Shown in pieces: positions 1,649 to 40,911 of a stretch of 64,000 bases of DNA. The DNA lies in contig CAVXRD010000002.1 in NCBI GenBank assembly GCA_963764165.1, positions 3,072,001 through 3,136,000 on the forward strand, written 5' to 3'. Made by a program: the position numbers and the translations under genes. Every line of letters starts with the position of its first letter. Position 1 is the first letter of the stretch. The notes below the pieces were generated by a model. That model was not told where the DNA came from. It searched no databases and was given only the letters and a program-made list of their open reading frames with translations. This stretch comes from an uncultured Verrucomicrobiae bacterium (GTDB lineage: Bacteria > Verrucomicrobiota > Verrucomicrobiia > Limisphaerales > Palsa-1400).

Positions 1649-1697
1649 GTCTTGTGCGAGCCAAAGGACGTATGGCCAGCTAACCATGCATGAGGCT

Positions 1698-1795: not shown

Positions 1796-1857
1796 GGAGA
1801 TAGAGGAGATTGCCCGCTCAGTCTTACGCGGTTAATTCAAATAACGAACACAACAGA

Positions 1858-4800
1858 ATGAAAACAATGAGACAATTCATCTTCGCGTCCGGCCTGGCTG
1901 CGGCCCTGATCACGGGCGCCCAGGCTCAGACCAACACCCCGGTTTTCACGCCCGGAAAGCTGGCAGTTTTGCGTGGCGGCGACGGCATCATCACCATCGT
2001 GACGGGCCGCCAGCACCCCATCTTCATCGACGAGTACGATCCTGCCATTTCAAATCAAGCCGCGCCTCTAGTCTCGCTGGAGTTGCCCACGAACGGGCCC
2101 AACGGCATCTTCATGAACGCCCACGCCGGCTCGGAAGGACAAGGGCTGACCCTTTCCGCGGACCACCGCTATCTGGCCACCTGCGGTTACTGCGGCGATA
2201 TCAATTCAATCGTCGGCACCCCTTCGAGCGCGACGAATTCCTCGGGACAGGGCTACAATCGCGGCTTCGGTGTTATCGATGCGTTCACAAACTTCAACGT
2301 TGTTTACCAGAGCGCCGAATGGTTCGGCATCGAGCCCGGCATAACGCAAAACAATCCCCGTGGATTGGCCACCGACGGCTCCAATGACTTCTGGGGCACT
2401 GGCACGATCGCCGGGACTCAAACTGGCGGCGGGTTCGTCGAAACGGGAACGCTGGCCTGGAATGGCAGCGGGCCCTACACCGTTCAAAACCTGGTCAATT
2501 CCGCATACTTCATGAGGATCGTGAACGGGGTTCTGTACATGGTGGCCAAGAATGAGGCCGGCGGCGCGCAAAACAATGGTGTTTATGATTTCGTTGATTT
2601 CAGCGGCACTGTCGTTCCCTTGGATTATGCCCCCGGGAATGAAGCCAGGGTGCTGAACACAAACCTGTTCCTGAATTTTGGCACGACTTACGCCAATGTG
2701 TTGACATTCGACATGGATCCGACCGGAACCTACGCTTATGCGGCGGACAACACTTATGGCATCGTTAAATTCGTCAACAGCGGCGGAACCTGGAGCCAGG
2801 CCTATTTGTTCAACTCGAACAACATCGGCAGCACCAGCAAAACGATCAATCCCAAAGGCGCCACCGGCTGCTTTGGCATCAAGGTCGACTTTTCCCAAAC
2901 CAACCCGGTCATCTACGCCACCACCATGGATGAAGGCGATGGCAAGAACACCTGCTCGAATCGCTTGATTTCGATTGTCGACACCGGCGTCGCCCCCAAT
3001 CCCACCAACATGATCGCCAAAGTGCTGGCCTTTGCCGCCAACACAAACGAAGTGCTGCGTGGCGTTGAATTCACCCCCGACCTTCTGCCCTACTTCCTCT
3101 CGCAGCCTGTCAGCACCAGCGTCACGACCAACGAGGCTGCCAGCTTTTCCGTCAGCGCGAGTTCGCCCTACTCGTTCACATATCAGTGGCAGGACAATGG
3201 AACCAATATCCAAAACGGCGGGGACGTCTCCGGCGTGAACACTGCCACGTTGAGATTCGCAGCCGCCACGCTGGCCGACGCGGGCAACTACACCGTTGTC
3301 ATCTCGAACCAATACGGCGCTGTTACAAGCCAGGTCGCGACTCTCGCTGTTTCCGCCACGGCCAATCCGCCGACGATCACCAATACTGTGGTTCATATCA
3401 CGAATTACATTGGCAATAACCAATCGTTCTCCGTGACACCAAAAGGCACGCCCCCTTTCTCCTTGCAATGGTACTTCGGAACCACCCCGCTCGTGGATGA
3501 CGGCATGAAATATTATGGCTCGACCAATTCGGCGCTCTACATCACGAATCTGACCTTGGCCGATTCCGGCAGCTATTACGTGACGATCAGCAATCAAGCG
3601 GGCGGGATTTCCAACTTGATCGCTGTGCTTACCGTTCAATACGTGTTGCCGAGCATTCCGCTCAGCGGCGAACCTCAGCCGCTCACCCTGCTCGAAGGCC
3701 AGACCGGAACACTGTCCGTCACGGGCGCCGAAGGCACCCAGCCGCTGACCTATCAATGGTATCAAGGCAGCACGGCCAATCCTTTGAGCGATGGGGGCGA
3801 CTTCCTCGGAACTCAAACTTCCACGCTGACGATCACCAACGCGGCGCTCAGCGACGCGGCTAACTACCTTTGCGTGGTCGCCAACGCCGGTGGCAGCGCG
3901 ACCAGTTCCGTGACGTCAGTGACGGTCATTGCTCCCCCGCCGCTTACTTATGTGGCCTACAGCAATCAGATTTATTCGCAGAACTTTGATTCGCTCCCCA
4001 ATCCCGGCACAGCCACCGTCAATACTGTCAGCGGCGGCGGGCCGACCACCATTGGCGGCATCACCTACGATCCATCCAATCCGTTTGACTTCGGCGCTCC
4101 GATTTACACCAACGCCAGCCAGCCGTCGGGAGGCTTGGGTCTCGCGGCGACGATGTCCGGCTGGTACGGCGAGTGCGACGCGGATTACGCGGCCGGCAAC
4201 GGCGCTCAAATCGGGGCCGCCGACGGCACTACAACGACCGGCGGCATTTACAGCTTCGGCCTCGCAACAAGCACAAACGCATCGCTTAATCGCGCGCTTG
4301 GATTGATCGCCACCGGATCATCGGGCGGCACGCATTTCGGCCTCAAGCTGATCAACGAAACGACCAACACCCTGGATTACGTCAGCATGCAGTTCGTGGG
4401 CGAATTCTGGAAGACCGGCACCAAGCCCAAGACGATGGTCTTCACCTACGACGTCGATCCGTCAGGCGATGCGTCGACGCTCTCGACGAGCGAACTCGCA
4501 TCGGCCGCCACGAATCCCGTTCCCGCGCTGACCTTCGCATTTCCGACGGCCGGCGTCGTTGGCGGAACGAACGGAACGCTGCCAAACAATCAGACCAATC
4601 TTTCGGTGACGAATCTGGCGCTGACCACGCCGTGGACTCCGGGTTCGGCCTTGTGGTTGATCTGGTCCATCAATGACGCCACGGGCAGCGGCCAGGGCTA
4701 CGGCATCGACAACTTCCTCTTCGCCGCCGGCGCGACCAATAACGTCTCGCTCGCCCCGCCTGCTGTGACCGCGCCGACACTCGGCAACGTGATATTCAGC

Positions 4801-5007
4801 TCCACCAACGGTTTGACCTTCACCTTCACCAACACGCCGGGCGCGAGCAGCTCGTTCACGATCCTCGAAACGACCAATCTGGCGCTGCCGGTCAGCCAAT
4901 GGGTGAACCTCGGAAGCCCAACGGAAGTTTCCGCCGGCACCTATAAATTCACCGACGGCCTCGCGACAAACAACGCGGCCCGATTCTACACGGTCGAGGC
5001 GCAGTAA
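1858..5007 (+). CDS. Large secreted protein: N-terminal beta-rich domain, three Ig-like domains, a beta-sandwich domain and a conserved C-terminal domain
   Basis: Signal peptide MKTMRQFIFASGLAAALITGAQA; three (Y/L)QW...D.G/A.Y.V Ig repeats; YSQNFDSLP...NRALG...GYGIDNF module. Confidence 0.85.
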   Translation: MKTMRQFIFASGLAAALITGAQAQTNTPVFTPGKLAVLRGGDGIITIVTGRQHPIFIDEYDPAISNQAAPLVSLELPTNGPNGIFMNAHAGSEGQGLTLSADHRYLATCGYCGDINSIVGTPSSATNSSGQGYNRGFGVIDAFTNFNVVYQSAEWFGIEPGITQNNPRGLATDGSNDFWGTGTIAGTQTGGGFVETGTLAWNGSGPYTVQNLVNSAYFMRIVNGVLYMVAKNEAGGAQNNGVYDFVDFSGTVVPLDYAPGNEARVLNTNLFLNFGTTYANVLTFDMDPTGTYAYAADNTYGIVKFVNSGGTWSQAYLFNSNNIGSTSKTINPKGATGCFGIKVDFSQTNPVIYATTMDEGDGKNTCSNRLISIVDTGVAPNPTNMIAKVLAFAANTNEVLRGVEFTPDLLPYFLSQPVSTSVTTNEAASFSVSASSPYSFTYQWQDNGTNIQNGGDVSGVNTATLRFAAATLADAGNYTVVISNQYGAVTSQVATLAVSATANPPTITNTVVHITNYIGNNQSFSVTPKGTPPFSLQWYFGTTPLVDDGMKYYGSTNSALYITNLTLADSGSYYVTISNQAGGISNLIAVLTVQYVLPSIPLSGEPQPLTLLEGQTGTLSVTGAEGTQPLTYQWYQGSTANPLSDGGDFLGTQTSTLTITNAALSDAANYLCVVANAGGSATSSVTSVTVIAPPPLTYVAYSNQIYSQNFDSLPNPGTATVNTVSGGGPTTIGGITYDPSNPFDFGAPIYTNASQPSGGLGLAATMSGWYGECDADYAAGNGAQIGAADGTTTTGGIYSFGLATSTNASLNRALGLIATGSSGGTHFGLKLINETTNTLDYVSMQFVGEFWKTGTKPKTMVFTYDVDPSGDASTLSTSELASAATNPVPALTFAFPTAGVVGGTNGTLPNNQTNLSVTNLALTTPWTPGSALWLIWSINDATGSGQGYGIDNFLFAAGATNNVSLAPPAVTAPTLGNVIFSSTNGLTFTFTNTPGASSSFTILETTNLALPVSQWVNLGSPTEVSAGTYKFTDGLATNNAARFYTVEAQ

Positions 5008-18204: not shown

Positions 18205-21200
18205 ATGAAAACACTGAGATCCCGGAAGGTTCGCTCCTCATTAGGCGGGGCGCTTCTCCTCGGCGCACTGGCAACCTCGCCACTGCACGCCCAAACGTAT
18301 CAATCTATCATCGAAGGTGACTCGCCGTTGGATTTTTGGCGTTTCACAGAAACTGTGGCATCACCTCTGCCCAACACGGTCACCAACCTCGGCAGCGTCG
18401 GAGCCGCCGGAACTGGTTATGTCGTTGGGCCCGGCTACTCGGTAACAGGCACCAACGGCATCGTTGGAAACGGCATCTTTCTAAGCAACCCTGGCCAAGG
18501 TTCAGGCACCGTCGATACCAAGATTGATATTCCGAACATTCCGGCGCTGAACCCGAATCCGCCTTTCTCGATTGAGTTTTGGGCGCAACCGAATCCCAAT
18601 GCAACATTTGCACCAAGTGACAGCACCGGTTTGTGTCCGCTTTCATCGCTCTGTCCTGACGGGGATCCGAATTTTTCGGAAAGCGCGCGATCTGGCTGGC
18701 TATTTTACGTGACGCCCACCAGTTGGACAATGCGGTTGGGCGGCCTTCAAAGCTATACGGCTGTCTGCACGTTCGGAACGAACGTCCCCAACACTTCATG
18801 GACGCATGTTGTGGGTGAATTCGATGGTTCGACTGCGTATCTATATTTGAATGGATACTTGGTCAAAACCACGCCTGCGACAAGCAACCCGTTTCAACCT
18901 AACCACTTTCAGGTCCTCCGGTTCGGCGGCACGACGCTGGCCAACAATCCTAACGCAGAGGACGCCAACGGCAGCTCGCTGGTCTCCGGCGGCAACCGTG
19001 GATGGGACGGATTTCTTGACGAAGTTGCCATCTACACCAACCTCCTGAGCTCCAACACGGTCATGTCGCATTACACGGCGGGCATTGCGCATTCAGCCAG
19101 TTACAGTTCCCTCATTCTCGCTTCCTCGCCGGTCGGCTACTGGCCGCTGAACGAAGGCGTGTATACACCACCGAGCGTCGACGGAACGTTTGCCGCCGAC
19201 ATCGGTTCAGCCGCCAACAGCGGAACGAATACCATCGGAACCCTCGCGGACCAGCCCGGCGTTCCGGGCCTTGGCGATCCCTCTGTCTACTATAGCGGCG
19301 CCATCGGATCATTGGTGCTGGACTCGCCCACTCCGGTTAATGTCGCGGGGCAGACTCTCACGCTGGCGGCATGGATCAAGCAGACTGGTTTTGATTACGT
19401 CTCCGACATCATTGCCCAAGGGTTTGACACAACAAACTACTTCGAAAACTTCCTCCGCGTCGGCGATTCGTTCGACTGGGCGAATTCACAGGACAACAAT
19501 TCCGGTGAAAATTACAACACCAATGTCGTGAACAACGTCAACTATTACGAGGTGGGCGCGTACGACGATGGCCCAGGCTATGTTAGCGCGGTTTTCCCCG
19601 TCCCGAATGGAGATCTTGGGCACTGGGTATTCCTGGTCGGCACCTACGATGGAGAGAATTGGAATCTTTATCGCAACGGTGTGTTAGCGGCCCAGTTTAA
19701 CGGCAGCTTTCCCGACGGAAGCGGTTCCGGGCCTGTCGCTGTAAACTATCCGTGGTCGGTTGGTTCACGCAGCGAGCCGAGTCCGTACTTCGGAATGTTT
19801 TTCCCAGGCTATATTGCGGAACCCGCTGTTCTTACCACCGCCCTTTCGGCGGCAACAATTTCCAATCTTTACAACAAAGCAGCGCTGCCTCCTGTCGTCA
19901 CGGCGCCTGCGCAAGTGGTCTCGCCGGCCTACGTCGGTCAGAACGTCGCGTATAGCATCTGGGCCGACGGGCCCGGCGGCCTGCACTATCAATGGTACTC
20001 CAATAACGTTGCCATGAGTGGTCAAACGTCCAGCAACCTCAGTTTGAGCGGTGTTACCCCAAGCTCTGACGCAACCTACTCCGTCGTCGTGTCCAACCCA
20101 TACGGATCAGTCACGGATTCGGTGCCACTCTTCGTAACCCCTTCGCTGCCTGCTGTAACGATCGTGCCGGCGGCGGAAAAGCGGTGGATTGGAACAGAGC
20201 TGAGTTTTGCTCCTGCCAGCCTGCCTTCTGTATCGCTGACCTACCAGTGGTACCTTAACGGAACCAACATCCCCGGCGCGACATCTTCCAATTACACCGC
20301 AGTCACAACCAGCAGCAGTGCTGGCAGCTACACGCTGATTGCGACCAGCACGTACGGCGCGGTTACCAGTTCAGTCTCCACGTTGACGCCGCTGACTCCG
20401 CCGAACTCCTACGTCTCAACGATTGTGGGTGACCAACCGGAAGCGTATTTCCGCCTCGATGAACAGAGCGGCACCGTTGCCCACGATTACGCCGGTGGCA
20501 ACGACGGTCAATATATTGGCGCCCTTACCTTGGGAGTCCCTGGCTATTCGCTGGTCGACACCGATACGGCCGTTTATTTCCCTGGCCAAGCGGTGGATTA
20601 TGTTGGCAACTTTGGGGCCACATCCATTGACTTCCCGGGCACGAGCTCGGAGTTCTCGATTGAAGCGTGGGCCAAGGGGCCGGCGGTCCAGAATGTGGGG
20701 ACAGGCGTGATTGTGGCCAAAGGCCATAGCAACAACGGAACCACTGCCAATGAGCAGTTTAGTCTCCTCAACAACGGCGGCACATGGGAATTCCTGGTTC
20801 GCGACTCACACGCCACCGCGCATACGGCGACGGCAAGCACTGGCCCCGATGGAAGCTGGCATCATCTGGTCGGCGTCTTCGATTCAGCCGGCGGCAGCAT
20901 GTATCTCTATGTCGACGGTGTCCAGGCGGCCTCGGGCAGCGCGACTGGCCTGAATGGCGGCGTCATTGACAACGGGTCTTCGGTAAGCATCGGGTCAGAA
21001 AGTTCCGGCCCGACGCCTGATTATGCTTACGCCTTCGAGGGAACGATTGACGAAGTAGCGATCTATGGGCACGCATTGAGCCCGGCGCAAGTCTCGGCGC
21101 ACTATGCGGCGGTTTACGGGCCGAATACACCTCCGTTTATCACCAGCCAGCCCACTTCGGTGACGAACTACTTCAGCCTCCCCGCGACACTGTCTGTTGC

Positions 21201-22356
21201 CGCCGCCGGCACGACTCCGCTGACGTATCAGTGGAACCAGAATGGCAGCCCGGTTTCGGGTGCGACGACCGCGACCTTGTCGTTCCCCTCATTGGATTAC
21301 AATCAGGCGGGAACGTACACGGTCGGCATTACCAACACGATCAGTGGTGGCGTGGTTACTGGCATCCTCAGCGCGCCCGTGACCGTCACCGTCCTGGCTC
21401 CGCCGACCAATCCGCCGGCGATCCCCGGGATGGTGATGCACCTGCCGTTTGATAATAACCTTATCGACACAACAGGCCGCGGCAATAACGCCACCAATCT
21501 GGCCAGCGGCGGCGCTCCGCTGATTACGAACAACTACGTTCAAGGAGTGATCGGCAATGCCTTCCAGTTCCAAACGACGGTCGATTCGAGCGTAGGAGGA
21601 ACAACGAACGCAAACTATGCAACGCTAGGTGTGCGCCCTGACTTGCAGTTCGGTTCCGGCAGCTTCACGGTCAGCATGTGGATCCAGCTTCCCTACAACT
21701 CCGAGCCATATGATCTGCCGTTCTTCACGGACGTTGTTGGATCCACGTTTGGCGCCCCGGGTTACGTGTTCACCTCTTCCTTCCAACTGGGCGGCTGGGG
21801 TTACTCTGTGTATAACGAAACCGGCAGTGCTGGCTTGGGCGTGTATGGACCCAGCCAATTGCTCAACGATGGCAACTGGCACAACCTTGTCTTCATCATC
21901 GACCAGGTGAATGGGGCAACTGTCTATATGGACGGCGTCGTGTCGCAGGGAACTATCGAGGGTGGTTCCACCGCGATCGGAATGGGCGATATTGACAGCA
22001 CTGAACCAGCCACCATCGGCCAGGACCCGACCGGCCTTTATGAGGGAGGCTTGGTGCAATCAGCAAATACGCTCCAAATCGGGATCGATGACCTCGCGGT
22101 CTGGAAGCGCGCGCTCACCCCGCTGGAAGCGGCTTCGATCTACGAAGCGGGTTTCTACAATGGGGTCGGCATCACCAACGCTCCGCTCACCTTCACCATG
22201 ACGAAGATCGCCGGCCCGAAACTGGTGCTGAACTGGAACGAGGGCGTTCTCCAAACCACGACCAACTTGGCTGGCGCTTGGACGACTCTGTCTGTCACGT
22301 CGCCGTATACCAATACGCCGTCGGGCAGCGATGCGTTCTTCCGCGTCAAGTTCTAA
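18205..22356 (+). CDS. Large secreted LamG (concanavalin-like) / Ig-like multidomain protein
   Basis: Signal peptide ending LHA; four LamG-like domains (LDEVAIY, IAEPAVL, IDEVAIY, IDDLAVW); three YQW Ig repeats; conserved C-terminal domain. Confidence 0.9.
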   Translation: MKTLRSRKVRSSLGGALLLGALATSPLHAQTYQSIIEGDSPLDFWRFTETVASPLPNTVTNLGSVGAAGTGYVVGPGYSVTGTNGIVGNGIFLSNPGQGSGTVDTKIDIPNIPALNPNPPFSIEFWAQPNPNATFAPSDSTGLCPLSSLCPDGDPNFSESARSGWLFYVTPTSWTMRLGGLQSYTAVCTFGTNVPNTSWTHVVGEFDGSTAYLYLNGYLVKTTPATSNPFQPNHFQVLRFGGTTLANNPNAEDANGSSLVSGGNRGWDGFLDEVAIYTNLLSSNTVMSHYTAGIAHSASYSSLILASSPVGYWPLNEGVYTPPSVDGTFAADIGSAANSGTNTIGTLADQPGVPGLGDPSVYYSGAIGSLVLDSPTPVNVAGQTLTLAAWIKQTGFDYVSDIIAQGFDTTNYFENFLRVGDSFDWANSQDNNSGENYNTNVVNNVNYYEVGAYDDGPGYVSAVFPVPNGDLGHWVFLVGTYDGENWNLYRNGVLAAQFNGSFPDGSGSGPVAVNYPWSVGSRSEPSPYFGMFFPGYIAEPAVLTTALSAATISNLYNKAALPPVVTAPAQVVSPAYVGQNVAYSIWADGPGGLHYQWYSNNVAMSGQTSSNLSLSGVTPSSDATYSVVVSNPYGSVTDSVPLFVTPSLPAVTIVPAAEKRWIGTELSFAPASLPSVSLTYQWYLNGTNIPGATSSNYTAVTTSSSAGSYTLIATSTYGAVTSSVSTLTPLTPPNSYVSTIVGDQPEAYFRLDEQSGTVAHDYAGGNDGQYIGALTLGVPGYSLVDTDTAVYFPGQAVDYVGNFGATSIDFPGTSSEFSIEAWAKGPAVQNVGTGVIVAKGHSNNGTTANEQFSLLNNGGTWEFLVRDSHATAHTATASTGPDGSWHHLVGVFDSAGGSMYLYVDGVQAASGSATGLNGGVIDNGSSVSIGSESSGPTPDYAYAFEGTIDEVAIYGHALSPAQVSAHYAAVYGPNTPPFITSQPTSVTNYFSLPATLSVAAAGTTPLTYQWNQNGSPVSGATTATLSFPSLDYNQAGTYTVGITNTISGGVVTGILSAPVTVTVLAPPTNPPAIPGMVMHLPFDNNLIDTTGRGNNATNLASGGAPLITNNYVQGVIGNAFQFQTTVDSSVGGTTNANYATLGVRPDLQFGSGSFTVSMWIQLPYNSEPYDLPFFTDVVGSTFGAPGYVFTSSFQLGGWGYSVYNETGSAGLGVYGPSQLLNDGNWHNLVFIIDQVNGATVYMDGVVSQGTIEGGSTAIGMGDIDSTEPATIGQDPTGLYEGGLVQSANTLQIGIDDLAVWKRALTPLEAASIYEAGFYNGVGITNAPLTFTMTKIAGPKLVLNWNEGVLQTTTNLAGAWTTLSVTSPYTNTPSGSDAFFRVKF

Positions 22357-27112: not shown

Positions 27113-28084
27113 TTACTGCTTATCCGGCCACAGCGCCTCAAGAGTGGCGGCGAGCCGGTAGCCAGCCTTTTCGATCTGTTCCTCGGCTGCCTGGTCGGAC
27201 CACTCGATGTATTCCGGAGAAAGGTCTTTGATATGCCATTGGACTCGCGGCGCGCCGGTTCGGGAATCTGTTTGACTGTCGTCCTCGTCGATGACCGTCA
27301 CGTCGTGGACTTTGGCGGATAGCACAACGCTTTCGCTGGCCCAGGCTCGATCCCAATCCATAAAGGGGCCGCGCGTTTTCCAGCGCGGGGCTGGCTTCTT
27401 CAAGAGGAAGGCTGCGTATTCTTTAGGCGTCTCCACGTGCGCTTTGGCCATGTCCGCCCGCACGACCGTTGTGTCCCAATAATAATGCAGTTGGAATTGG
27501 TTCGTGCCGCCATAGAAAAGCTTGTTGCCCCCTTGATCGTCGTGGTACTTGCCGTTGTATCCATTTGGGTCGACGAATTTGGTTTTGTCCAAGTAGCCCG
27601 CGCCGACATGCAATGGTTGATGAAGGTCTTCAATATAATGGGCCAGCAATCTCAAGGCGACACGCGGCGGCACGTCCTTGAAGATCGTTTGCTGTTCAGG
27701 CTTCCCTTGCAAAATCAAGATGCAGGCTGGAATGGCATGAACGACGTCGACATTGGTCGCCCCGATTGAACCATCGCTGTACTTCGTTTCCTCGAATGGG
27801 ATGTCCGTGTAGTGCGAGACGGTGTGATGCGGATTGGCGGTCTTGAACTGAATCATCTCGTCGGTTTGGCCTTCCCGGCCCTTCACCACATCCGCCCAAA
27901 TGGAAGCTGTGGAAAGGCTTTCCTCGCCGAGCAATTCATGGACGTGCTGCGCGGCAACCGTCCCGGCGATCAATTGATCCGCCATTGCGCCAATGGTCTT
28001 GTGCCCTTCGCTGCCCCAAGCGAAAACGGAGGGGCCTGGCCCGGCAACACAAACACACACAAAGACGCCGCAGAGAATTTTCAT
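27113..28084 (-). CDS. Secreted S1/P1 nuclease
   Basis: Signal peptide then WGSEGH, WAD, HYTD, HYIEDLHQPLH, DQGGN, LHYYWD. Confidence 0.92.
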   Translation of the reverse strand: MKILCGVFVCVCVAGPGPSVFAWGSEGHKTIGAMADQLIAGTVAAQHVHELLGEESLSTASIWADVVKGREGQTDEMIQFKTANPHHTVSHYTDIPFEETKYSDGSIGATNVDVVHAIPACILILQGKPEQQTIFKDVPPRVALRLLAHYIEDLHQPLHVGAGYLDKTKFVDPNGYNGKYHDDQGGNKLFYGGTNQFQLHYYWDTTVVRADMAKAHVETPKEYAAFLLKKPAPRWKTRGPFMDWDRAWASESVVLSAKVHDVTVIDEDDSQTDSRTGAPRVQWHIKDLSPEYIEWSDQAAEEQIEKAGYRLAATLEALWPDKQ

Positions 28085-28324
28085 GGCCGCGAGTATGGCG
28101 GGCTGGGGGCCGCAATTCAAGAGCGGAAGGTAACGCGAGACTCCGTCCGGGCGCAATTTGAACAGGAGAAAGACAGAAGGAGCGGAGACGAAAAAATCAT
28201 CCTTGGGCAAAAACAGCGTTTTTCTCTGTGCTCTCGGTTTTCGTCCTGTTTAGATTCGATGTCTGCCGCCCGCCAAAGTCGGAAACATTGGAATGGGCTC
28301 GACGGAGTCTCGCCCTGCCGACCG

Positions 28325-29146: not shown

Positions 29147-30802
29147 ATGAGCAACAAATCCCTGCAATTCAAAGTCGCAACCGAGGACTGGGAATTTGAA
29201 CAGATCCATGAGCTGAATTACCGCACTTTCGTCGAGGAAATCCCTCAGCATCAACCGTCAGGCACTCCGCGCCTGGTTGATAAATTTCACAACGAGAACA
29301 CCTACTTGGTCTGCCTGGCCGACAAGCGGGTGGTGGGGATGATCGCGGCCCGGGGCCGCCGGCCGTTCTCGCTGGACCAGAAGCTGCCCAATCTCGATTC
29401 CTATTTGCCGCCGGGCCGCCGCGTTTGCGAAATCCGCCTGCTTTCAGTGGAGAAGGCATTCCGGAACAGCCAGGTTTTCCGGGGGCTGACCGCGCTGATG
29501 TGGCAATACGGCTTGGAGCATGGTTACGATCTGGGGGTCATTTCAGGCACGACCCGCCAGACGAAACTCTATCGCCATATTGGTTTTGTGCCATTTGGGC
29601 CGCTGCTGGGGTCGGCGGAAGCCTCATTCCAGCCTATGTATTTGACTCTGGAGAACTTTGAGAAGCAGGCGGAGGAATTTTTGCGCCAGCCGATCCGCCG
29701 CCAGGGCCCGGCCAGCTTTTTGCCAGGCCCCGTTTCGATTCATCCGCTCGTTCGCCGCGCTTTCGAGAAGGCTCCAGAATCCCATCGCGGCGACCAGTTC
29801 ATGGTGGACTTCCAAGCCACCCGCCGCCGCTTGTGCCAATTGGTGGGCGCCCAGCAGGTTCAGATTTTGCTCGGATCGGGCACGCTGGCCAATGATACCG
29901 TCGCCGCGCAGCTTTCTCTCGAAAAGAAACCAGGTTTGATCCTGAGCAACGGGGAATTCGGGGAGCGCCTCATTGATCATGCCAAACGGTTTGGCTTGAT
30001 GTTTGACACATTGAAATTCCGCTGGGGTGAACCTTTCAATCTCTCCGCGGTCGAACAGTTCCTGTCCCGTTCGTCCTCGGTCGGCTGGATGTGGTGCGTG
30101 CATTCCGAAACATCCACCGGCATGCTCAATCCGCTGTCGACTCTTCAAGCGCTCTGCGCCAAAGCCCGGGTGAAGCTATCGGTGGATTGCATCAGCTCCA
30201 TCGGCGTTGTGCCGGTAAATTTGGAAGGCATCTATCTGGCTTCGTGTGCCAGCGGCAAGGGGCTGGCGGGCTATCCAGGTTTGTGCATGGTGTTTCACAA
30301 CCACGCCTTGACCTCCTCGAAATCGCTTCCGCGTTACATGGATCTCGGCTGGTATGACGAGCATCAGGGCATCGCCTTCACGCATTCCTCGAATTTGATC
30401 TATGCGTTGGATGCCGCTGTCCGCCAGCCCAACTGGGCGGAGAAGTTCGACAGCGTCGCCGCGGTTTCCGCGCACCTGCGGAATCGCCTGCGCGAAATTG
30501 GCTTCACGCTGATTGCGCCCGATTCTGAAGCGACTCCGGGAGTGGTCACCATCGCCTTGGCGCCGTCCCAAAGCGCGGTGAAGCTGGGCCAGCAATTGCA
30601 CGGCGCGGGCTTCCTCTTGAGCTACAACAGCGATTACCTCCGCCAGCGGAACTGGATTCAAATTTGCCTGATGGGCCAATTCTCGCAGGAAAAGCTGGAG
30701 TCGCTGGTTAACTGGCTTGCCAAAAACCCAGTTCCCGTGGCGAACCCTCCCTTTGCGCCCCTCCAAAACGGATCGCCCGCCGCTCGCATCGCGACAGCGT
30801 AA
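29147..30802 (+). CDS. Fusion: GNAT-fold acyltransferase + class V PLP-dependent aminotransferase-fold domain
   Basis: N-terminal IHELNYRTFVEEIPQH...CEIRLLSV...LYRHIGF; C-terminal FLPGPV, GSGTLAND, NGEFGERL, VHSETSTG, VDCISS, SGKG. Confidence 0.88.
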   Translation: MSNKSLQFKVATEDWEFEQIHELNYRTFVEEIPQHQPSGTPRLVDKFHNENTYLVCLADKRVVGMIAARGRRPFSLDQKLPNLDSYLPPGRRVCEIRLLSVEKAFRNSQVFRGLTALMWQYGLEHGYDLGVISGTTRQTKLYRHIGFVPFGPLLGSAEASFQPMYLTLENFEKQAEEFLRQPIRRQGPASFLPGPVSIHPLVRRAFEKAPESHRGDQFMVDFQATRRRLCQLVGAQQVQILLGSGTLANDTVAAQLSLEKKPGLILSNGEFGERLIDHAKRFGLMFDTLKFRWGEPFNLSAVEQFLSRSSSVGWMWCVHSETSTGMLNPLSTLQALCAKARVKLSVDCISSIGVVPVNLEGIYLASCASGKGLAGYPGLCMVFHNHALTSSKSLPRYMDLGWYDEHQGIAFTHSSNLIYALDAAVRQPNWAEKFDSVAAVSAHLRNRLREIGFTLIAPDSEATPGVVTIALAPSQSAVKLGQQLHGAGFLLSYNSDYLRQRNWIQICLMGQFSQEKLESLVNWLAKNPVPVANPPFAPLQNGSPAARIATA

Positions 30803-30889: not shown

Positions 30890-31594
30890 CTAGAAGGAAT
30901 AGCTGACGCCGAGTGTCAGCACCGGCCAGAACTCCGCATAGCGGGCGTCGTGCTTGATTTTGCCGTCGACGGTGGCCAGATCGGAGTTGAATTGTCTTTG
31001 AACATACGGGTTGGGGTTGCTTTCCGATCCCGACAAGCTCACCCGCGGATCGCCCGCGTACATCGCGCCCAATTCACCGACGAGCGCCCAATGATGCTCA
31101 CGGTCGAAATAGCAAAGATTGCCGCGGATGCCGATGTACGGATCGACGGGCTGCTGCTGGATGCGCAGCGCAACACTGCCATCGTAGTGATCTCCTTCGA
31201 CCGTGATCCTGCCAGAGGCGGAGCCGTCAAGCATCAGCTCGTTGATGACCGCGCCCACGCAGATGTGAAATGAGCTGGTTTTCCAAGGATAAATATCCAA
31301 GGTAAGCGGTGCGAACAGGAACTGCGCATGGCCTTGGTAATCGATGTTCTGAATCGTGTCACTGCCCGAGAATGAGAGATAATTGATCCCAGCGCGCAAC
31401 CCCAGGTTATCAATAAATCGCCAACTCACCGTGCCGCCAGGCCCCATCGTGCTGATGGGATCCACTCCCAGCGACAGGGAGCGGTAAGGCGGGGAATTCG
31501 TCAAATCTGTGGCGGATGCGGATCCGACAGCCCCAAAACACGCGACCGCCGCAAGGCCCGCGATAATCGAATATTTGATTGGATATGTTTTCAT
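30890..31594 (-). CDS. Putative outer-membrane beta-barrel protein
   Basis: Signal peptide, amphipathic strands, PYIGI, terminal LGVSYSF. Confidence 0.8.
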   Translation of the reverse strand: MKTYPIKYSIIAGLAAVACFGAVGSASATDLTNSPPYRSLSLGVDPISTMGPGGTVSWRFIDNLGLRAGINYLSFSGSDTIQNIDYQGHAQFLFAPLTLDIYPWKTSSFHICVGAVINELMLDGSASGRITVEGDHYDGSVALRIQQQPVDPYIGIRGNLCYFDREHHWALVGELGAMYAGDPRVSLSGSESNPNPYVQRQFNSDLATVDGKIKHDARYAEFWPVLTLGVSYSF

Positions 31595-31866
31595 AGGTTG
31601 ACTGAATTTTCACCGGCCCGGCACGGACCAGCCCGCGCCCGAGGGCCAATTCATTTTTGATCGCCAGTTGCTTCTCAGAAAGATGAGGGCATTGCAAGTA
31701 TTATTTGACAGAAGCCGCATAAGGTCCGCTTTTTCTGGTTGCCAAATCCTCATCTTCTGCTAGAAGAATGTGATTGCCAATGAGAAGGGTCTGATTTCCG
31801 TTTGTGCCGATCAAAGAGGGGGGTATCCGGTTTGGAGCCACCGACGGAACGGGGCCTGTGAAAACT

Positions 31867-34800
31867 ATGAAAACAAACTTGCTGCCGCCGCCGACCCTTC
31901 ATGCCGGAATTTCCTGGCTTGCCCGAATGCCATGGGGCTTCGCAGCGGCCCTGATCCTTTTCGTTGGGTCTTCGGCCTTTGGCCAGAATTCCTTTTCGGT
32001 GGGGACAAACTTGGTCGACATTTCGCAGAAGACCGGAAACGAAACGGATCCATCCATTGCCATCAGCCCCCTGAACTCCAGCAACATGGTGGTCGCCGCG
32101 GCGACGGATGCCCAGCAGCCGGGCCTTTTTTTTGCCTTTACTACCAACCTCGGCAAAACGTGGTACACCAATTACATCGCCACCAATTCGGATTCCCAAG
32201 GATTAACCCCGGGTTATGGCGAGCCCTCGGTGGCCTGGGATTCCTTCGGGAATTTGTTCCTGGCGTATATGCCCTACACTTTCGAGGGCGTTGCCATCGC
32301 GGTGAGCACGAATAACGGCAGCAACTTCATGTTCGTCACCAACCTCGCCAAATTTGACTCGACGGATCAGCCGCGCATCACCTCCGCCTACTCGGGGAAG
32401 GGGGCTGGCAGCGTCTGGGTCGTCTATAAAGACTACACGACGACGATGCCGATCTTTTCCCCGCTTCAGGTTCAATCCGCTCTCTCCACCGGCCTCGGGT
32501 CCATCGGGACGTTTGGCGTTCCCCAAATTGTGCCGGAATCGACCGACGGCGGATTCGCGGACATCGCTGTCGGGCCGCTGGGACAGGTCATGGTGGCGTT
32601 CCAGGACAATCTCGATGGCGATCCAGATCCCGCCGCCTATCCCACCGCCAATATCTGGGCTGCCTTCGAAACAAACGATTACACCGGCGGCATCATCACC
32701 AACAGCGGGTTTTTGGACGCGGAAATCATTGCCTCGGATGCGATTGGCGGGCGCACTTACATTGCGGCGGCGCCCACGGGTATCGGCATCAACGCCGCGC
32801 CGGGATTGATGTGGAATTGCAATGCAAATTCCACCAATTACGACGAAGTTGGCATCGTCTATACCGCCGTTGGCCCGAACCAGAGCGCGGTGATCAATTA
32901 CCTGACTTCGACGGATTTTGGAACCAACGCCTTGGGGGTCTCGACCAATTGGAATCAAACCTATGTGGACGACGACGCGGCTCAAGGCAACGCCGACCAT
33001 TTCCTGCCCCGCACGGCCATCGACCAGGAAACGGGCATCCTCGTGTGCTCCTGGTTTGACTGCCGCAACGATCAGGGCGGCGCTTCGGCGCCGATCACAA
33101 ACGTGTTTACGGCTAAGTTCACCTTCAGCAGCCTTTCGATGGTGACGAATGTCTTTTTCACCAATGACATTCCGGATATTTCGGAAACGTGGACAACGAG
33201 CACCTCCGGCAAAACGACCAACATCAGCATCTTCCTCACCGCCGACAACGCTGGAGGAACCGTGATCACCAATGACGGCATTTCGCAGATTTTCGTAGGC
33301 GATTCCACCACGACAAATTTCATCATGGATCTGGCTGGGACAAACGAGGGCAGCGTGACGGTCACGATCACTGTTACGAATCTAAACACGGAAGGTTACA
33401 CGGGCGGAACTCCGAATTCGGAACCTGTCATGTACTCGACCATCAGTTTTGACGGCGGCAGGACGTTTCTCGCGAATCAACAATTAAGCCCAGCCAATCA
33501 GCTTATTGTGAAACCGGCGGTTGGGGTTGCTTCCGAGGTGTCCGGGTCGACCAGCCTGACGGGCTGGGGCCATTACACGGGCCTGGCGGCGTATGGCGCG
33601 AGCTTCTTTCCTGTCTGGCCGGATAACTCCGATGTCACCACCAATAATCCAGACGGGGCGCACAAAAATTTTGATCTTTACATGATCACTTCCGGGCCGG
33701 GCCAATCCGGGATCTCCGTGCCGGTTGCGAATTTGAGGATTTGGGTGACGAATTCGCCCAACCCCGTCATTTCCGCCGGGGTGCTCGTTTATTCCGTCAT
33801 CGTCAGCAACGGCGGCCCCAAGACCGCGACTCCGCTTACGGTTACGAATATACTCTCGACCAATGTGACGCTTATTCCAAACGGCGTCATTCCGGCCTTG
33901 GGCGGAACCTACACGGTCGACTACACAACCAACGGCCAGGAGGAAGTTATTTTCAATCTGCCGTCGCTCCCCGCCTTGGGTTTGCTGACGAACACGATTC
34001 GTGTCACCGCAACCACTTCGGGTATCGATACAAATTTTGCCTCGGTGTATACTCCGTTCATCAATCTCTCGCCGACCAACGCGACCAATCAACTTGTCGT
34101 TATCGTGGAGGGCCAGGATTTGACGATGAGCCTCGGCGCCTCCGAGACCAATGTGCTCATTGGCGACACCGTCGTCAGTTGGGTAACGGTGACCAATCTT
34201 GGCCCCGCCACCAACGGGCCGGTCTACATCACCAATTATTTCTCCCCCAATTGGACAAACGTCACGATCCAAGCCCAAGGCACCAATCTCGTCACCAACA
34301 CGCCGTCGGGAACCATCGTCATCGCGGATTTGGGGCTTTTGCCAGTCGGCAAGCCCGTCACCGCCTATTTCACCGCTGTGGCGCTGAGCGGCGACGCCTT
34401 TGGAGACACCACCAACGCATCCGAATACGCGGTCGTTTCCAGCCAGGACTACGACACGAATTTGCTCGATAATGCGGCGGCCCTGAACTTCTACATCAAC
34501 GGCGAGAACCTTGCAGTCGGTTTGGTGACACCCGCCACCAACGTCGATCAGGGTGTTCCATTCGTATATTCGATTTACGTCACGAACCTGGGCAATTCAT
34601 ACTCGGGGCAGGTCGTTGTCACCAACATGCTTTCCACGAATTTGCAGCCGCTGTCGATATTGCAATCGCAGGGCACAGTTACAAACTACGGCGTCAGCAA
34701 TCAGCTCGTCTTCAACCTTGGCACGATTGGCGCCGGAGAAATTGCGGAGATGTCCATCACCGCCGAATCGATCGGCCTGCCGCCGGTCGCCACAAGCTCA

Positions 34801-36678
34801 GTCACTGTGTCCAGCTCTGACTTTGACTTGAATCTTGTCAACAACAGCGTCACCAACGCCATTGGCATTAACGGGGAAGATCTTGCCGTCGTCGTGACTC
34901 CGTCGAGCGCGAGCGTCGACTTGGGGCAATCCGTGACGTTCTCCATCGTGGTCGACAATTTCGGGCTTTCCTACAACGGCGTGATTACAGTGACCAACGT
35001 CGTTTCCTCAAACCTTGTGGTGACGGGCGAGACTCAATCACAGGGCACAAACGTCACCACCGGCAATCAAACGGTGTTCACGCTCGGGGCGCTCGGAGTC
35101 AGGCAATCCGCGGTTTTGACAGTGACCGCGATGGCTGTCTCCGGCCCGGCGCCTGCCACTGACGTGGCGCTAGTGTCGGAAACCGACTTCGACCTTTTCC
35201 CGGCCAACAACGCGGCAACCAATGCCATCACTGTCAACAATGAGGATTTGGCCATCGGAGTGACCGTCTCTCCCTCTACCCAGCAAGTCGGCCAGCCGGT
35301 GACCTTCAATGAAATCGTCACGAACATAGGGCTGTCCTTTAACGGTGATGTCCTCGTGACCAACACGATTTCCACCAACCTTGGCAGCATCACCGTCCTG
35401 CGCCCATCCAGCTACACCATCAATGGCAATGTGATTGTTTTCGATCTCGGGCAATTAAGCGCGGGCCAGACGGTTCCGATCGCCGTATCGGCCATTCCCA
35501 CGAGCGTTGGCACCGGCTCGCTGGCGGCGGGAGTGAGCAGCCTCAGCTTCGACACAAACCTTGCCAACAATTCCGCCACCGCCAAGCTCACCATCACCAA
35601 GGCGCTGCCGATGATCAGCAATATCGTCGTGACCCCGCTGGCCAGCAGCGCGTTCATCTCCTTCAAGACGGGCTACCCGGCGACGGTGCAGGTGCTTTAC
35701 GGGAACACGACAAACTACGGCAGCGTCACATCCGAAACTTCCGCCGCCACGACCAATCACGCTGTGTTATTGACGGGATTGGCGGGCGGCACCAATTACG
35801 ATTTTCAAATCCAGGCCACCGTGTATTCAAAATTATACACGACGAATGGAACATTCAGCACCACCACCAATTTAATTCTGACCACGGTGGACGCGCGTTA
35901 CTCGGGCTTGTGGACAGAAGGCGCCGGCATTCCCGGGATTTATGACACGACATATCAGTACACGCGAACCACCAACAGCAACGCAAATGCCTGGTCGAGT
36001 TTTGATCCGTCTATTCCGGCATCCGGATTATACAACGTGTACGTTTGGTATCCACAAAACGTGAATTTCACCACCAACGCCCAGGTTTACTTTTACGGCG
36101 CGACGAATCAGTTCAGCCTTTCGGTCAACCAAACCACCAACGGCGGAGCCTGGCTGCCGCTGGCGACCAACATGTATTTCAGCAGCGGCACCAACGGCGC
36201 TGTGCTCTATTACAACGACACTGGCGAAACCAACAAGTACCTCGTCGTCGACGCCATGATGTGGACATACGACGCGGCGCAGGATTATCCGACGAACGGA
36301 ACTGTGCCGGCGTGGTGGGCGAATTTTTATTTTGGCACCAACGTCAACGGCTACGTCAATGGCGCCAGCGACGTGAATGGAACCGGCTATTCTGTATTTG
36401 ACGATTACGTGCTTGGCCTCAATCCGACAGACACGAATTCAACCGTGAATTTCACTGTGGCCCCCATGCCGGGAAGCCAGGTCGCGGTGACATTCTCGCC
36501 ATGGCAGGGCGGCCGCAATTACGAACTGCAAAGCACGACCGACCTATCACAAGGCGCTTGGACCACGCTGACGAACACTTACACAGTCGGCACGAATGGA
36601 TCTGGAACATTTATTGTTTCCCAGCCCAATGCGGTCAATGCCTTCTATCGGTTGCAAGCCCAATTGAGCGGGCAGTAG
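31867..36678 (+). CDS. Very large secreted protein: sialidase/BNR-like propeller, five DUF11-like repeats, FN3-like domain, carbohydrate-binding-like domain and conserved C-terminal domain
   Basis: Asp-box-like TTNLGKTW, STNNGSNF and SFDGGRTF; repeats DL.V....V..G....Y/F...V.N.G...D.N..NN; PASGLYNVYVWYP...VDAMMW. Confidence 0.85.
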   Translation: MKTNLLPPPTLHAGISWLARMPWGFAAALILFVGSSAFGQNSFSVGTNLVDISQKTGNETDPSIAISPLNSSNMVVAAATDAQQPGLFFAFTTNLGKTWYTNYIATNSDSQGLTPGYGEPSVAWDSFGNLFLAYMPYTFEGVAIAVSTNNGSNFMFVTNLAKFDSTDQPRITSAYSGKGAGSVWVVYKDYTTTMPIFSPLQVQSALSTGLGSIGTFGVPQIVPESTDGGFADIAVGPLGQVMVAFQDNLDGDPDPAAYPTANIWAAFETNDYTGGIITNSGFLDAEIIASDAIGGRTYIAAAPTGIGINAAPGLMWNCNANSTNYDEVGIVYTAVGPNQSAVINYLTSTDFGTNALGVSTNWNQTYVDDDAAQGNADHFLPRTAIDQETGILVCSWFDCRNDQGGASAPITNVFTAKFTFSSLSMVTNVFFTNDIPDISETWTTSTSGKTTNISIFLTADNAGGTVITNDGISQIFVGDSTTTNFIMDLAGTNEGSVTVTITVTNLNTEGYTGGTPNSEPVMYSTISFDGGRTFLANQQLSPANQLIVKPAVGVASEVSGSTSLTGWGHYTGLAAYGASFFPVWPDNSDVTTNNPDGAHKNFDLYMITSGPGQSGISVPVANLRIWVTNSPNPVISAGVLVYSVIVSNGGPKTATPLTVTNILSTNVTLIPNGVIPALGGTYTVDYTTNGQEEVIFNLPSLPALGLLTNTIRVTATTSGIDTNFASVYTPFINLSPTNATNQLVVIVEGQDLTMSLGASETNVLIGDTVVSWVTVTNLGPATNGPVYITNYFSPNWTNVTIQAQGTNLVTNTPSGTIVIADLGLLPVGKPVTAYFTAVALSGDAFGDTTNASEYAVVSSQDYDTNLLDNAAALNFYINGENLAVGLVTPATNVDQGVPFVYSIYVTNLGNSYSGQVVVTNMLSTNLQPLSILQSQGTVTNYGVSNQLVFNLGTIGAGEIAEMSITAESIGLPPVATSSVTVSSSDFDLNLVNNSVTNAIGINGEDLAVVVTPSSASVDLGQSVTFSIVVDNFGLSYNGVITVTNVVSSNLVVTGETQSQGTNVTTGNQTVFTLGALGVRQSAVLTVTAMAVSGPAPATDVALVSETDFDLFPANNAATNAITVNNEDLAIGVTVSPSTQQVGQPVTFNEIVTNIGLSFNGDVLVTNTISTNLGSITVLRPSSYTINGNVIVFDLGQLSAGQTVPIAVSAIPTSVGTGSLAAGVSSLSFDTNLANNSATAKLTITKALPMISNIVVTPLASSAFISFKTGYPATVQVLYGNTTNYGSVTSETSAATTNHAVLLTGLAGGTNYDFQIQATVYSKLYTTNGTFSTTTNLILTTVDARYSGLWTEGAGIPGIYDTTYQYTRTTNSNANAWSSFDPSIPASGLYNVYVWYPQNVNFTTNAQVYFYGATNQFSLSVNQTTNGGAWLPLATNMYFSSGTNGAVLYYNDTGETNKYLVVDAMMWTYDAAQDYPTNGTVPAWWANFYFGTNVNGYVNGASDVNGTGYSVFDDYVLGLNPTDTNSTVNFTVAPMPGSQVAVTFSPWQGGRNYELQSTTDLSQGAWTTLTNTYTVGTNGSGTFIVSQPNAVNAFYRLQAQLSGQ

Positions 36679-39048: not shown

Positions 39049-40911
39049 TTATGCCACCGAACTGACCAGCGGCGGTTTCAGCGTCTTGTCCTGCGGATGC
39101 GTTCCAACATCACCCTTGTAGGAAGTGTCGCGGCTGAACGTCAGGCTCGCCACGCGAGTCTCGACCCCGTCGGCGGAATGCGCGGCGGCGGGCAGGGAAT
39201 AATTTCCGTCCGGCAGCGCGAATCGGAAACTGAACGAACCGTCCGGGCGCAATTTGATCGGGCGATCGCCGATGGTGACTTTCGCGTCCGGCTCGGTCGC
39301 GCCGTAGATGATCAATTCCGCGTTCACCATGAACCAGAAACCGCGCTTCTTTTCCGCCGCGCCGCCAAACGGGCTGGAGACGCTCGACTCCGCGCCAAAT
39401 TGCGAACTCGGCAAGCTGAATTTCGCCGCGCCCATCGAGGAAATATTTTCCAATAGCTGGCGGCGAATCAATTCCGTGATCTCGAGCGAACCGATCCAAA
39501 TGCGGCGCACCTGATCGATGGAAATGACTTCGGCCAGCGCCTTTTCCTGGGCGGGCGTCCATTCGGCAGCATGAACGGCTTCCGGCGTCGGAAGACTGCG
39601 ATAACCTTGCGTGCGCATCTGCTGCATCGCTTCCACCAGCGGCGTGTGTTCGCGAACGGCTCCTTTAACGAGAGACAGCAATTCGGTAAACGGCACTTCG
39701 CCCGGGATCGTGGCAAAGCGAATGGACGTGTCATCGGAAAGGCTGTCGGGCGGGGTAAAGGTCGCCGCCGAGCGGGCCAGCGAGACCCACTTGTGGGTGG
39801 TGTCCAAGTAGCCGATTTCGCCAAGATACTTGGTGGCCACCGAAGGCACCGGCGCAAACCAGGTGCGCGATTCGGGATGCACATGAATCTGCGAAATGGG
39901 CTCGCTTTCAAACGCGCCCTTGTAAATCCGGAGAATCAAATGCCCGTCCGCCGAGAGTCCGTTATACATCTTGAGCTGTTCCCGGCTGAAATCCCAATGC
40001 GCATAAAGCCAATGCGGGTCGCGCGCTGTCAAAAATAATTTCTGCGTGCCGTAGGATTCCGGCAACTCTGCCGCGGCAGCCGGCGCGGCTGTGCCGGGTG
40101 CGGACGGAGGCGTCGGCCCAAGCGCATAGCGCTGTCCGGGACCGCTTGCACTGGGCGCGGCGGGCGCATCTCCTTCCAGGAGAATCGGCGGAATCTTCAA
40201 CTTAGTGACACGGGAAGTCTTTTTGGCTTTCGCCTGCGTGGCCGCTGGAGCTGCCGGGGCCGCAGGAGTTGCAGGAGCTGTGGCAACGGAAGTTGGCGCC
40301 GGAGTTGGAGCTGGCTTTTTGGCGGGCGTGGGCGTCGGCTCGGGCTTGGGAGCGGAGACAGATGCCGGGGCTGGAGCAGACGCCTTGGATTTGGCGGCTG
40401 CTGGCGCTGGAGTCGGGGCCGGGACTGGCTTCTTAGCGGGCGCGGGCGCGGGCTCAGGCTTCGCAGCAGGCGCTGGTGCCGGTACTGCTGGTGCCTTGGG
40501 CTTGGCGGCCACTGGAACTGCAGCCGGGGCCGGGGCCGGCGCGGGCTTCTTAGCGGGCACCGGAGCAGGCGCAGATTTGGGAGCAGGCGCCGGGGCCGGA
40601 GCTGCCGTTTTGGACTTGGCGACGGCGGGAATTGGAGCCGGAGCGGGAGCAGGGGCCTTGGATTTCGCGGTCGCTGGCGCGGGAACCGGAGCTGAGGCAG
40701 GCGCAGGGGCAGCGGGTTTCTTGGCTGGAGTTGGAGAAGGTGCCGGAGCAGCGGGTTTTTTCGCAGGCTCGGGGGCTTTTGCCTTCGCAGCGGAAGCTGC
40801 TGGAACTACAGGCGCAGCTGGTGTGGTGGCTTTGGAAACGGTTGCAGTTTTCGCGGGCTTTGCCGGCTCGGCGGCAGCTTTGCGCGATCCTTTTTTGTCT
40901 TTCTTGCTCAT
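39049..40911 (-). CDS. DUF4912 family protein with long Pro/Ala/Lys-rich N-terminal region
   Basis: ELPESYG...ARDPHWLYAHWD and FWFMVNAELIIYGATEPDA...DGSFSFRFALPDG; upstream of a GH57 gene, the usual context for this family. Confidence 0.88.
   Translation of the reverse strand: MSKKDKKGSRKAAAEPAKPAKTATVSKATTPAAPVVPAASAAKAKAPEPAKKPAAPAPSPTPAKKPAAPAPASAPVPAPATAKSKAPAPAPAPIPAVAKSKTAAPAPAPAPKSAPAPVPAKKPAPAPAPAAVPVAAKPKAPAVPAPAPAAKPEPAPAPAKKPVPAPTPAPAAAKSKASAPAPASVSAPKPEPTPTPAKKPAPTPAPTSVATAPATPAAPAAPAATQAKAKKTSRVTKLKIPPILLEGDAPAAPSASGPGQRYALGPTPPSAPGTAAPAAAAELPESYGTQKLFLTARDPHWLYAHWDFSREQLKMYNGLSADGHLILRIYKGAFESEPISQIHVHPESRTWFAPVPSVATKYLGEIGYLDTTHKWVSLARSAATFTPPDSLSDDTSIRFATIPGEVPFTELLSLVKGAVREHTPLVEAMQQMRTQGYRSLPTPEAVHAAEWTPAQEKALAEVISIDQVRRIWIGSLEITELIRRQLLENISSMGAAKFSLPSSQFGAESSVSSPFGGAAEKKRGFWFMVNAELIIYGATEPDAKVTIGDRPIKLRPDGSFSFRFALPDGNYSLPAAAHSADGVETRVASLTFSRDTSYKGDVGTHPQDKTLKPPLVSSVA

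Follow-up and report, generated by a model that had tools for sequence, protein, structure and literature searches.

Among bacteria, motif-directed general O-glycosylation has been described for the Bacteroidota alone, and the transferase of that system is still undiscovered (PMC12871550). We analyzed a stretch of 64,000 nucleotides (the window) from an uncultured Verrucomicrobiae bacterium of the order Limisphaerales (assembly GCA_963764165.1, contig CAVXRD010000002.1), which encodes an exported protein of 1624 aa with an extreme excess of the dipeptide Thr-Asn (TN). The enrichment is real, lineage-wide, and under strong selection in both directions. A covalent modification at TN is highly probable, and this modification is probably a sugar. 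With moderate confidence, we propose that a general O-glycosylation of periplasmic location recognizes TN as its acceptor signal, (T>S)-N-(not P), with a TMEM260-like protein as the predicted transferase. The literature searched (subscription papers were mostly outside reach) described no T-N motif in bacteria, and the signal is most probably a new sequon that belongs to a type of pathway already known.

In the Bacteroidota, O-glycosylation follows the motif D-(S/T)-(A/L/V/I/M/T) (PMC12871550). The pattern described here resembles it in being a short linear motif of non-cytoplasmic proteins, present lineage-wide and confined to non-cytoplasmic segments, in which Ser and Thr interchange and which concerns periplasmic proteins as well as those en route; the two-step model of a core and a ligase would also fit, and Bacteroides thetaiotaomicron, a control genome, carries PF11028, the family of TMEM260. 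The differences lie in the determinant, here an Asn after the hydroxyl residue and there an Asp before it (the ratio of observed to expected counts for DT is 0.80 in our signal-peptide class, and those for DT and DS are mostly about or below 1 in relatives), and in the acceptor, since Thr is strongly preferred here and Ser slightly there. In addition, a Man-Rha-GlcA core glycan and an LFG locus are described for the Bacteroidota.

The human protein O-mannosyltransferase TMEM260 (PF11028; PDB 9RQL/9RQM/9RQN; PMC10214176), of which distant bacterial homologs have been remarked on (PMC10214176), shares with our candidate the glycosyltransferase type C (GT-C) core, a luminal or periplasmic domain, and C-terminal TPR. 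Its substrates are extended chains, in which it prefers Thr while accepting Ser (bioRxiv 10.64898/2026.03.17.711096), and this matches the order T>S found here. The bacterial protein is unlike it in its length (1000-1500 aa, with inserts) and in that it would serve hundreds of proteins via a two-residue motif. Reading of a G-(T/S)-N motif of IPT domains by TMEM260 was considered and rejected, as the human site is an upstream Thr.

The N-X-S/T sequon (X not P) of STT3/PglB/AglB is alike in that Pro after Asn blocks it, the Thr form is favored, and sites are selected both for and against in secretory proteins (PMC5562741), but its hydroxyl residue stands two positions after Asn instead of before it, and neither N-X-S/T enrichment nor an STT3 match was found in the own genome of the window. 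Finally, cytoplasmic N-glycosylation of the HMW1C type also ties glycosylation to two-partner secretion (TPS). In that system, the TpsA adhesin itself receives the modification while still in the cytoplasm, whereas in the present case the motif is avoided by TpsA proteins and occurs at neutral levels in cytoplasmic ones.

Thr-Asn sites of the window protein

The 1624-aa protein (Table 1) contains 68 TN against 18.7 expected (10,000 shuffles: mean 18.7, standard deviation 3.9, maximum 33) and only 6 NT, in agreement with the hand count of the earlier note (roughly 65-70 and fewer than 10) and beyond anything in the shuffled controls that it had proposed. All motifs quoted there (VVVTNMLSTNL, VLVTNTISTNL, DLTNS, GGTNQ, DGTNG, and YRTNL) were found, as were its counts for the exported protein at 1858-5007 (about 27 TN and about 10 NT); the LamG protein has TN 17 against 9.5. 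In contrast, the S53 protease, whose tail it had also listed, is not enriched, with 6 against 4.1 over the whole gene and 3 against 3.1 in the part inside the window. The TN enrichment is two- to four-fold in every domain. SN occurs 7 times against 12.9 expected, and neither T-N-P nor T-N-x-K/R is found at any of the 68 sites.

A search for homologs of similar length gave 114 matches, the protein itself included. In 45 close homologs, the T and N of TN sites are kept in 65% and 67% of cases, compared to 43% and 51% for other T and N. The DUF11 positions at which the earlier note had remarked on VTN in place of VTD mostly read TN in these homologs, with TD, ID, LD, SD, and SN as variants, and where TN is lost, N is kept (SN 127, AN 90) more often than T (TD 58, TS 47). 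This bias, together with an Asn that is invariant while Thr and Ser interchange and with the block by a following Pro, as for N-X-S/T, would also fit modification of the Asn by another enzyme, either as a non-canonical N-glycosylation with a hydroxyl residue at position -1 or as a non-sugar adduct. We regard this as unlikely, since N-X-S/T is not enriched (27 against 31.6 expected in the 1624-aa protein, as the earlier note had held in stating that the signal is not the plain sequon; N-x-T 1.15 and N-x-S 1.00 in the signal-peptide class), STT3 is above cut-off in only 4 of 151 genomes of the phylum, and the co-occurring TMEM260-like enzyme appears to keep a hydroxyl-activating type of active site. 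The canonical N-sequon with STT3/PglB was rejected on the same lack of enrichment and on the absence of PF02516 matches in the own genome (97% complete), with control matches in four archaea.

Enrichment in segments that enter the periplasm

For the genome-wide counts, 5001 genes were called with our own gene model and classed by a hydrophobicity heuristic. TN is the top dipeptide in 694 signal-peptide proteins (3370/1544 = 2.18), in which SN (0.94), NT (0.80), and T-x-N (0.92) are not enriched. In 2171 strictly filtered cytoplasmic proteins, the ratio is 1.06 (1152/1085, rank 113 of 400), or about 1.02 without the window protein, which this set still includes owing to a mis-called start; the 1.45 of the raw cytoplasmic class is due to exported proteins with mis-called starts. 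The comparison of exported and cytoplasmic proteins suggested by the earlier note is in its favor for the own genome, and the cytoplasmic proteins of the window show no enrichment either, as it had remarked (TN 8 against 12.7 over 27 cytoplasmic-class genes). A T-N-(not P) site is carried by 527 of 775 signal-peptide proteins.

The enrichment follows topology within single proteins. Seventeen Ser/Thr kinases have TN 7/7.2 inside and 53/20.4 past the membrane helix, and eight histidine kinases 13/3.9 in the periplasmic loop versus 5/4.4 inside. Neutral values were obtained for proteins whose route does not take them unfolded across the periplasm: a Tat-motif set (14/18.6; 29 proteins, some of them false positives) and four flagellar axial candidates (13/19.5). 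The enrichment is limited to segments entering the periplasm via Sec. In exported proteins only, the ratio depends on the following residues, being 1.00 for T-N-P, 0.66 for T-N-x-K, and 0.77 for T-N-x-R, versus about 2-2.8 for most other contexts.

Some classes of exported proteins show patterns of their own. TN lies within 8 aa past the signal-peptide cut in 21 of 263 signal-peptide proteins (7.2 expected), and it also clusters right behind the signal peptide in 24 outer-membrane barrel-like proteins (heuristic assignment), whose last 180 aa are neutral to low (TN 16/18.6, SN 10/20.5). Enrichment is only mild (1.42) among 80 pilin-like proteins encoded in the genome. Seven evident PEP-CTERM proteins (e.g., G000 C2:644887-647757, C2:2689938, C2:2895951, and C2:3553807) have 0 TN versus about 9 expected, and one PEP-CTERM protein has N-X-S/T 9 versus 3.5; the patterns used gave false positives and small counts (TN 1 versus 11.1). 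As a lead only, PEP-CTERM proteins may avoid the TN system or use another.

Purge from two-partner-secreted exoproteins

The two most TN-depleted proteins of the own genome are TpsA exoproteins (above the TIGR01901 cut-off), each encoded beside a ShlB/POTRA_2 (TpsB) gene. TN occurs 0 and 1 times against 34.6 and 12.4 expected, and SN is absent from both (21.7 and 13.6 expected), in contrast to NT with 33/34.6 and 10/12.4. In 24 further TPS-domain proteins of the order, the counts are 3/309 for TN and 44/265 for SN, so that the 26 exoproteins of the order have a total of 4 TN versus about 356 expected, with SN purged too. Twelve TPS proteins from other orders have TN 120/158 and SN 89/158, with a baseline of 0.63 for NT and 0.67 for NS. 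These counts are based on 39 of 43 matches in a first set and 30 of 63 in a second, TpsB adjacency having been looked at for the two genes of the own genome. When the last 150 aa are excluded, 17 TpsA proteins of the own family contain 0/202 TN and 9/183 SN; of the 21 sites that survive in them, 10 have Pro after the Asn and 10 are within the last 150 aa. The other dipeptides examined in the purged proteins (NT, NS, TD, and TQ) are reduced far less (0.55-1.00).

TpsA proteins cross the periplasm unfolded before passing through the TpsB barrel, and some of their C-termini stay periplasmic (PMC5422565), which fits the survivors in the C-terminal tail. In eukaryotic secretory proteins, N-sequons are gained where the glycan is harmless and lost where it is obstructive (PMC5562741). 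From the same combination of gain and loss, we infer a covalent, probably bulky periplasmic modification at (T>S)-N-(not P). The proposal of the earlier note, that selection favors (T/S)-N sites recognized by a modification system of the periplasm, fits all tests run, with the restriction that positive selection concerns Thr only: SN is not enriched in the 1624-aa protein or genome-wide, and Ser becomes visible only in the avoidance signal. Three TPS proteins (L318, L328, and L326; families f84 and f88) purge TN and keep SN (14/14.9 in f84), which suggests that certain lineages have an enzyme variant restricted to Thr.

The pattern could also arise if TN served as a sorting or quality-control tag for a binding protein, chaperone, or protease of the periplasm, given that any periplasmic reader of unfolded chains would fit both the enrichment and the purge. 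This is very unlikely in our view, since the many dispersed sites per protein (median spacing 15 aa), the preference for Thr over Ser, and the exclusion of Pro resemble glycosylation sequons, and the pattern goes along with a GT-C gene (see below). Moreover, enrichment is equal in proteins that bear the C-terminal FYR tail (2.10) and in those that lack it (2.16).

A further possibility is that TN arises as a side effect of the structure or composition of beta-rich extracellular domains, or at the level of DNA or codon pairs. Fourteen distant propeller homologs, mostly of unknown origin and carrying BNR/sialidase-type Pfam families, still have TN at 1.35x, and DUF11 proteins without the C-terminal tail of the lineage score 0.9-1.8, so part of the DUF11 TN may be structural; ACT-AAY codon pairs, for their part, are under-used. 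On the other hand, LamG-type proteins from other orders without the enzyme have a ratio of 0.85. Charged periplasmic proteins still score about 2, and on the predicted structure TN sites occupy strands and loops like any Thr (strand-strand in 25 of 50, versus 52 of 100 for other Thr). A near-total and lineage-specific purge of TN and SN, next to far smaller reductions of NT, NS, TD, and TQ, could not result from fold alone. The structural explanation is largely refuted by these homolog-matched controls. The DNA or codon artifact was rejected because TN-coding hexamers are enriched solely in the coding frame and over three Thr codons (ACC, ACG, and ACA). Taken as one, this alternative is hardly credible.

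A TMEM260-like protein as candidate transferase

Profile searches of the own genome gave 14 PMT_2, 3 TMEM260-like, and 8 Wzy_C matches. The candidate transferase, a TMEM260-like protein of 1304 aa, matches human TMEM260 (9RQL) with an E-value of 1e-15 and keeps the equivalents of D52, H67, R264, and Y267, residues reported as essential in the human enzyme (bioRxiv 10.64898/2026.03.17.711096). Aligned to 9RQL, these are D81, H96, and the R and Y of the motif SRGQY. Of 38 orthologs, 37 retain D81 and H96 (the other sequence is cut off at that end), and all retain the R and Y, with neighboring E, S, T, or A variants. An Asp invariant in the 38 orthologs, D656 in GGTD(P/A)GRF, is spaced from a preceding DA like the catalytic base D441. 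The protein includes the PF11028 domain and C-terminal TPR; its predicted structure (pLDDT 86) is of the GT-C fold, and the top VIA match is Pmt4 (Z 23.6). A search with 140 aa around the putative base gave chance matches only, and plasmid records held no match to the TMEM260-like protein.

Other copies of this family were observed. A second TMEM260-like TPR protein (L170:2420-5344, G000:C2:413416-416343), like L292, is missing all active-site motifs, and this copy (group B) was rejected as the enzyme for that reason; in G050, a motif-less copy adjoins the intact gene, and such a copy may be an inactive partner subunit. Tandem duplicates are present in several relatives (L243, L244, L247, and L251), and a truncated copy of 479 aa without the periplasmic domain is encoded at G000:C1:270625-272064.

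Among the other enzymes considered, TMTC-like GT-C proteins (GT105) were rejected, as the query was unmatched in six purging genomes (G180, G171, G173, G169, G175, and G007) and present in four non-purging ones (G060, G048, G045, and G108). TMTC-like GT-C/TPR genes (e.g., L167, G000:C1:704733-710336) are nevertheless expanded and in tandem in the own family, with up to 34 matches in G168. The PF08409 search matched nowhere, controls included. An Agl23-like, two PMT_2, and one EPS-linked GT-C protein were each missing in some purging or present in a non-purging genome in tests with five genomes, two of these four queries matching nowhere, which makes their tests weak.

A rival transferase is a PglL/WaaL-like Wzy_C protein with TPR (G000:C1:1348468-1350462), which would move a whole oligosaccharide onto Thr. 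The protein has Wzy_C above cut-off plus TPR, and PglL-type enzymes are Ser/Thr oligosaccharyltransferases. Against this, the query had no match in purging G007 and G228 among ten genomes compared, O-antigen ligases serve ordinary lipopolysaccharide roles, and bacterial O-glycosylation outside the Bacteroidota is generally motif-free (PMC12871550). We consider it improbable as the enzyme that reads TN; the protein would be either this competing transferase or a ligase that attaches an outer glycan. A query with a separate Wzy_C protein of 421 aa matched 5 of 8 purging genomes.

Co-occurrence of the gene and the purge

A narrow first profile placed PF11028 in 20 of 20 genomes of the order and in 0 of 10 from other orders. 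With a protein query, the TMEM260-like gene was found in 30 of 30 other genomes of the order and in 79 of 170 from other orders, and these additional orthologs made the other-order genomes a prospective test. The gene was not found in 21 of 25 genomes checked, including all 9 behind 11 control TpsA proteins. Within the first 740 aa of TPS proteins, the order has TN 0/134, compared with 44/128 for other-order genomes that carry the gene and 31/48 (NT 21/48) for those that lack it. LamG-type proteins from other-order genomes have TN 154/96 with the gene and 112/131 without. By family, TN is purged in 20 of 26 with the gene versus 1 of 7 without (Fisher p 0.005). Profiling GT-C and oligosaccharyltransferase genes against the bias, another of the checks suggested earlier, yielded a TMEM260-like gene that partly tracks the purge and no match for STT3 in the own genome.

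Several points weigh against the TMEM260-like protein as the enzyme, and against our interpretation more generally. The Mann-Whitney test for the family comparison gives p 0.053 (0.15 for other orders alone), and related families are not independent. Six of the 26 gene-bearing families do not purge (f3, f72, f73, f79, f21, and f25, with one TPS protein each), one of the seven without the gene scores 0/2.9, and the gene-bearing genomes G035, G080, and G008 show no TN enrichment (0.35-0.73), their copies being on long branches. The Wzy_C-TPR protein, for comparison, is found in 6 of 8 purging genomes (G171, G175, G217, G186, G317, and G299) and in neither of two non-purging ones (G060 and G081). 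Within the candidate itself, motif spacing is the basis of the D441 equivalence, because the 9RQL alignment has lost its register at that point; R355 likewise has no in-register match. In the fold searches, STT3 (Z near 22) is within about 1.5 Z of Pmt4, and human TMEM260 (9RQL) is not among the matches. The gene is unlinked to sugar or substrate genes, with a sigma factor, dnaJ, grpE, and rsmE as neighbors. Human TMEM260 reads a long Pro/Gly sequon of IPT domains on few clients and not T-N, so the specificity would have changed. The TpsA protein HMW1 carries a glycan of its own, and small sugars thus do not necessarily obstruct TPS. Finally, signal peptides were assigned by an ad hoc heuristic.

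Range across the Verrucomicrobiota

For LamG-type exported proteins, the TN ratio is 1.59 within the genus and 1.91 within the family. The remaining families of the order give 1.73 (patchy), the first sample of other orders 0.85, and further classes of the phylum 1.74; among these classes, f25, f28, f31, f35, and f24 reach 2-3.7, whereas f26, f21, and f30 are near 0.7. The survey is based on 41 of 49 genomes that passed a composition filter (dropped: G169, G174, G175, G069, G096, G033, G010, and G097). For beta-helix regions, a PATR regular expression yielded too few matches. BamA of the own family (L040-L061) has 2-4 TN sites at about residues 575-610 that are missing in most other families, in counts that are noisy because the longest-ORF rule (ORF, open reading frame) chose antisense frames at several loci; this stretch may be a surface loop, with glycans attached, of an essential barrel.

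Features of the window

The coordinates of the features are collected in Table 1. Three N-methyl pilin-like genes (window 812-1687, 15736-16593, and 17099-18022) adjoin large exported genes. The gene at 29123-30802 encodes a class V aminotransferase (PhnW-like) fused with a FeeM-like GNAT domain, and its product is a possible single-gene N-acyl amine synthase. At 39049-40944, a DUF4912 protein with a long Ala/Pro/Lys-rich N-terminal linker adjoins a GH57 branching enzyme.

Table 1. Features of the window and the candidate enzyme, with TN counts against those expected
Feature	Position	Strand	Remarks
Exported 1624-aa protein	31804..36678	+	68 TN sites; start probably 31867; order: beta-propeller, five DUF11 Ig-like repeats, FN3-like, Golvesin_C, C-terminal FYRL-type tail
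Sec signal-peptide region (predicted from the sequence)	31867..31983	+	hydrophobic core ending SSAFG
N-terminal beta-propeller region with insert	31984..33723	+	TN 20 vs 5.5, NT 1
Five DUF11 repeats	33724..35613	+	TN 30 vs 8.2, NT 3
FN3-like + Golvesin_C + C-terminal tail	35617..36675	+	TN 5 vs 1.5 (FN3-like; label inferred from PF16656 on homologs), 7 vs 1.7 (Golvesin_C), 4 vs 1.8 (tail)
Exported Ig-domain protein	1867..5007 (ORF 1810-5007)	+	TN 27 vs 11.4, NT 10
Exported LamG/Ig protein	18205..22356	+	TN 17 vs 9.5 (modest)
S1/P1 nuclease	27113..28210	-	TN 2 vs 0.4
Outer-membrane-barrel-like protein	30890..31594	-	single TN right behind signal peptide (DLTNS)
TMEM260-like GT-C protein, 1304 aa, candidate transferase	G000:C4:588331-592245 (outside the window)

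Proposed mechanism and implications

In the mechanism that we propose, chains leaving Sec unfolded would meet the TMEM260-like enzyme, which would move a lipid-linked sugar onto a Thr, or less well a Ser, that precedes Asn; in human TMEM260, this sugar is mannose. The O-antigen-ligase-like protein (G000:C1:1348468-1350462) may next add a bulky outer glycan, as proposed for the Bacteroidota. Sites would be gained in surface and periplasmic proteins and lost from TpsA proteins, since a bulky glycan would keep the latter from passing the TpsB pore.

A wider reading, which we put forward tentatively, is that much of the Verrucomicrobiota possesses an undescribed general O-glycosylation with the sequon (T>S)-N-(not P) and an ancestral single-copy TMEM260-like writer plus a ligase, which would have reshaped hundreds of surface proteins and erased the motif from pore-threaded ones; by extension, bacterial TMEM260/DUF2723 proteins might be general motif-reading O-transferases, including the missing D-S/T enzyme of the Bacteroidota. 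The proposal names an enzyme, a sequon, and a built-in negative control (T-N-P), and the TpsA purge offers a general route to reading hidden modification motifs from genomes. If true, this would be the second motif-directed general O-glycosylation in bacteria, and possibly a source of a two-residue tag for glycoengineering. It would give bacterial TMEM260 homologs a function and the Bacteroidota enzyme a candidate, predict hundreds of glycosylated proteins per genome, and redefine the cell surface of abundant soil and freshwater Verrucomicrobiota.

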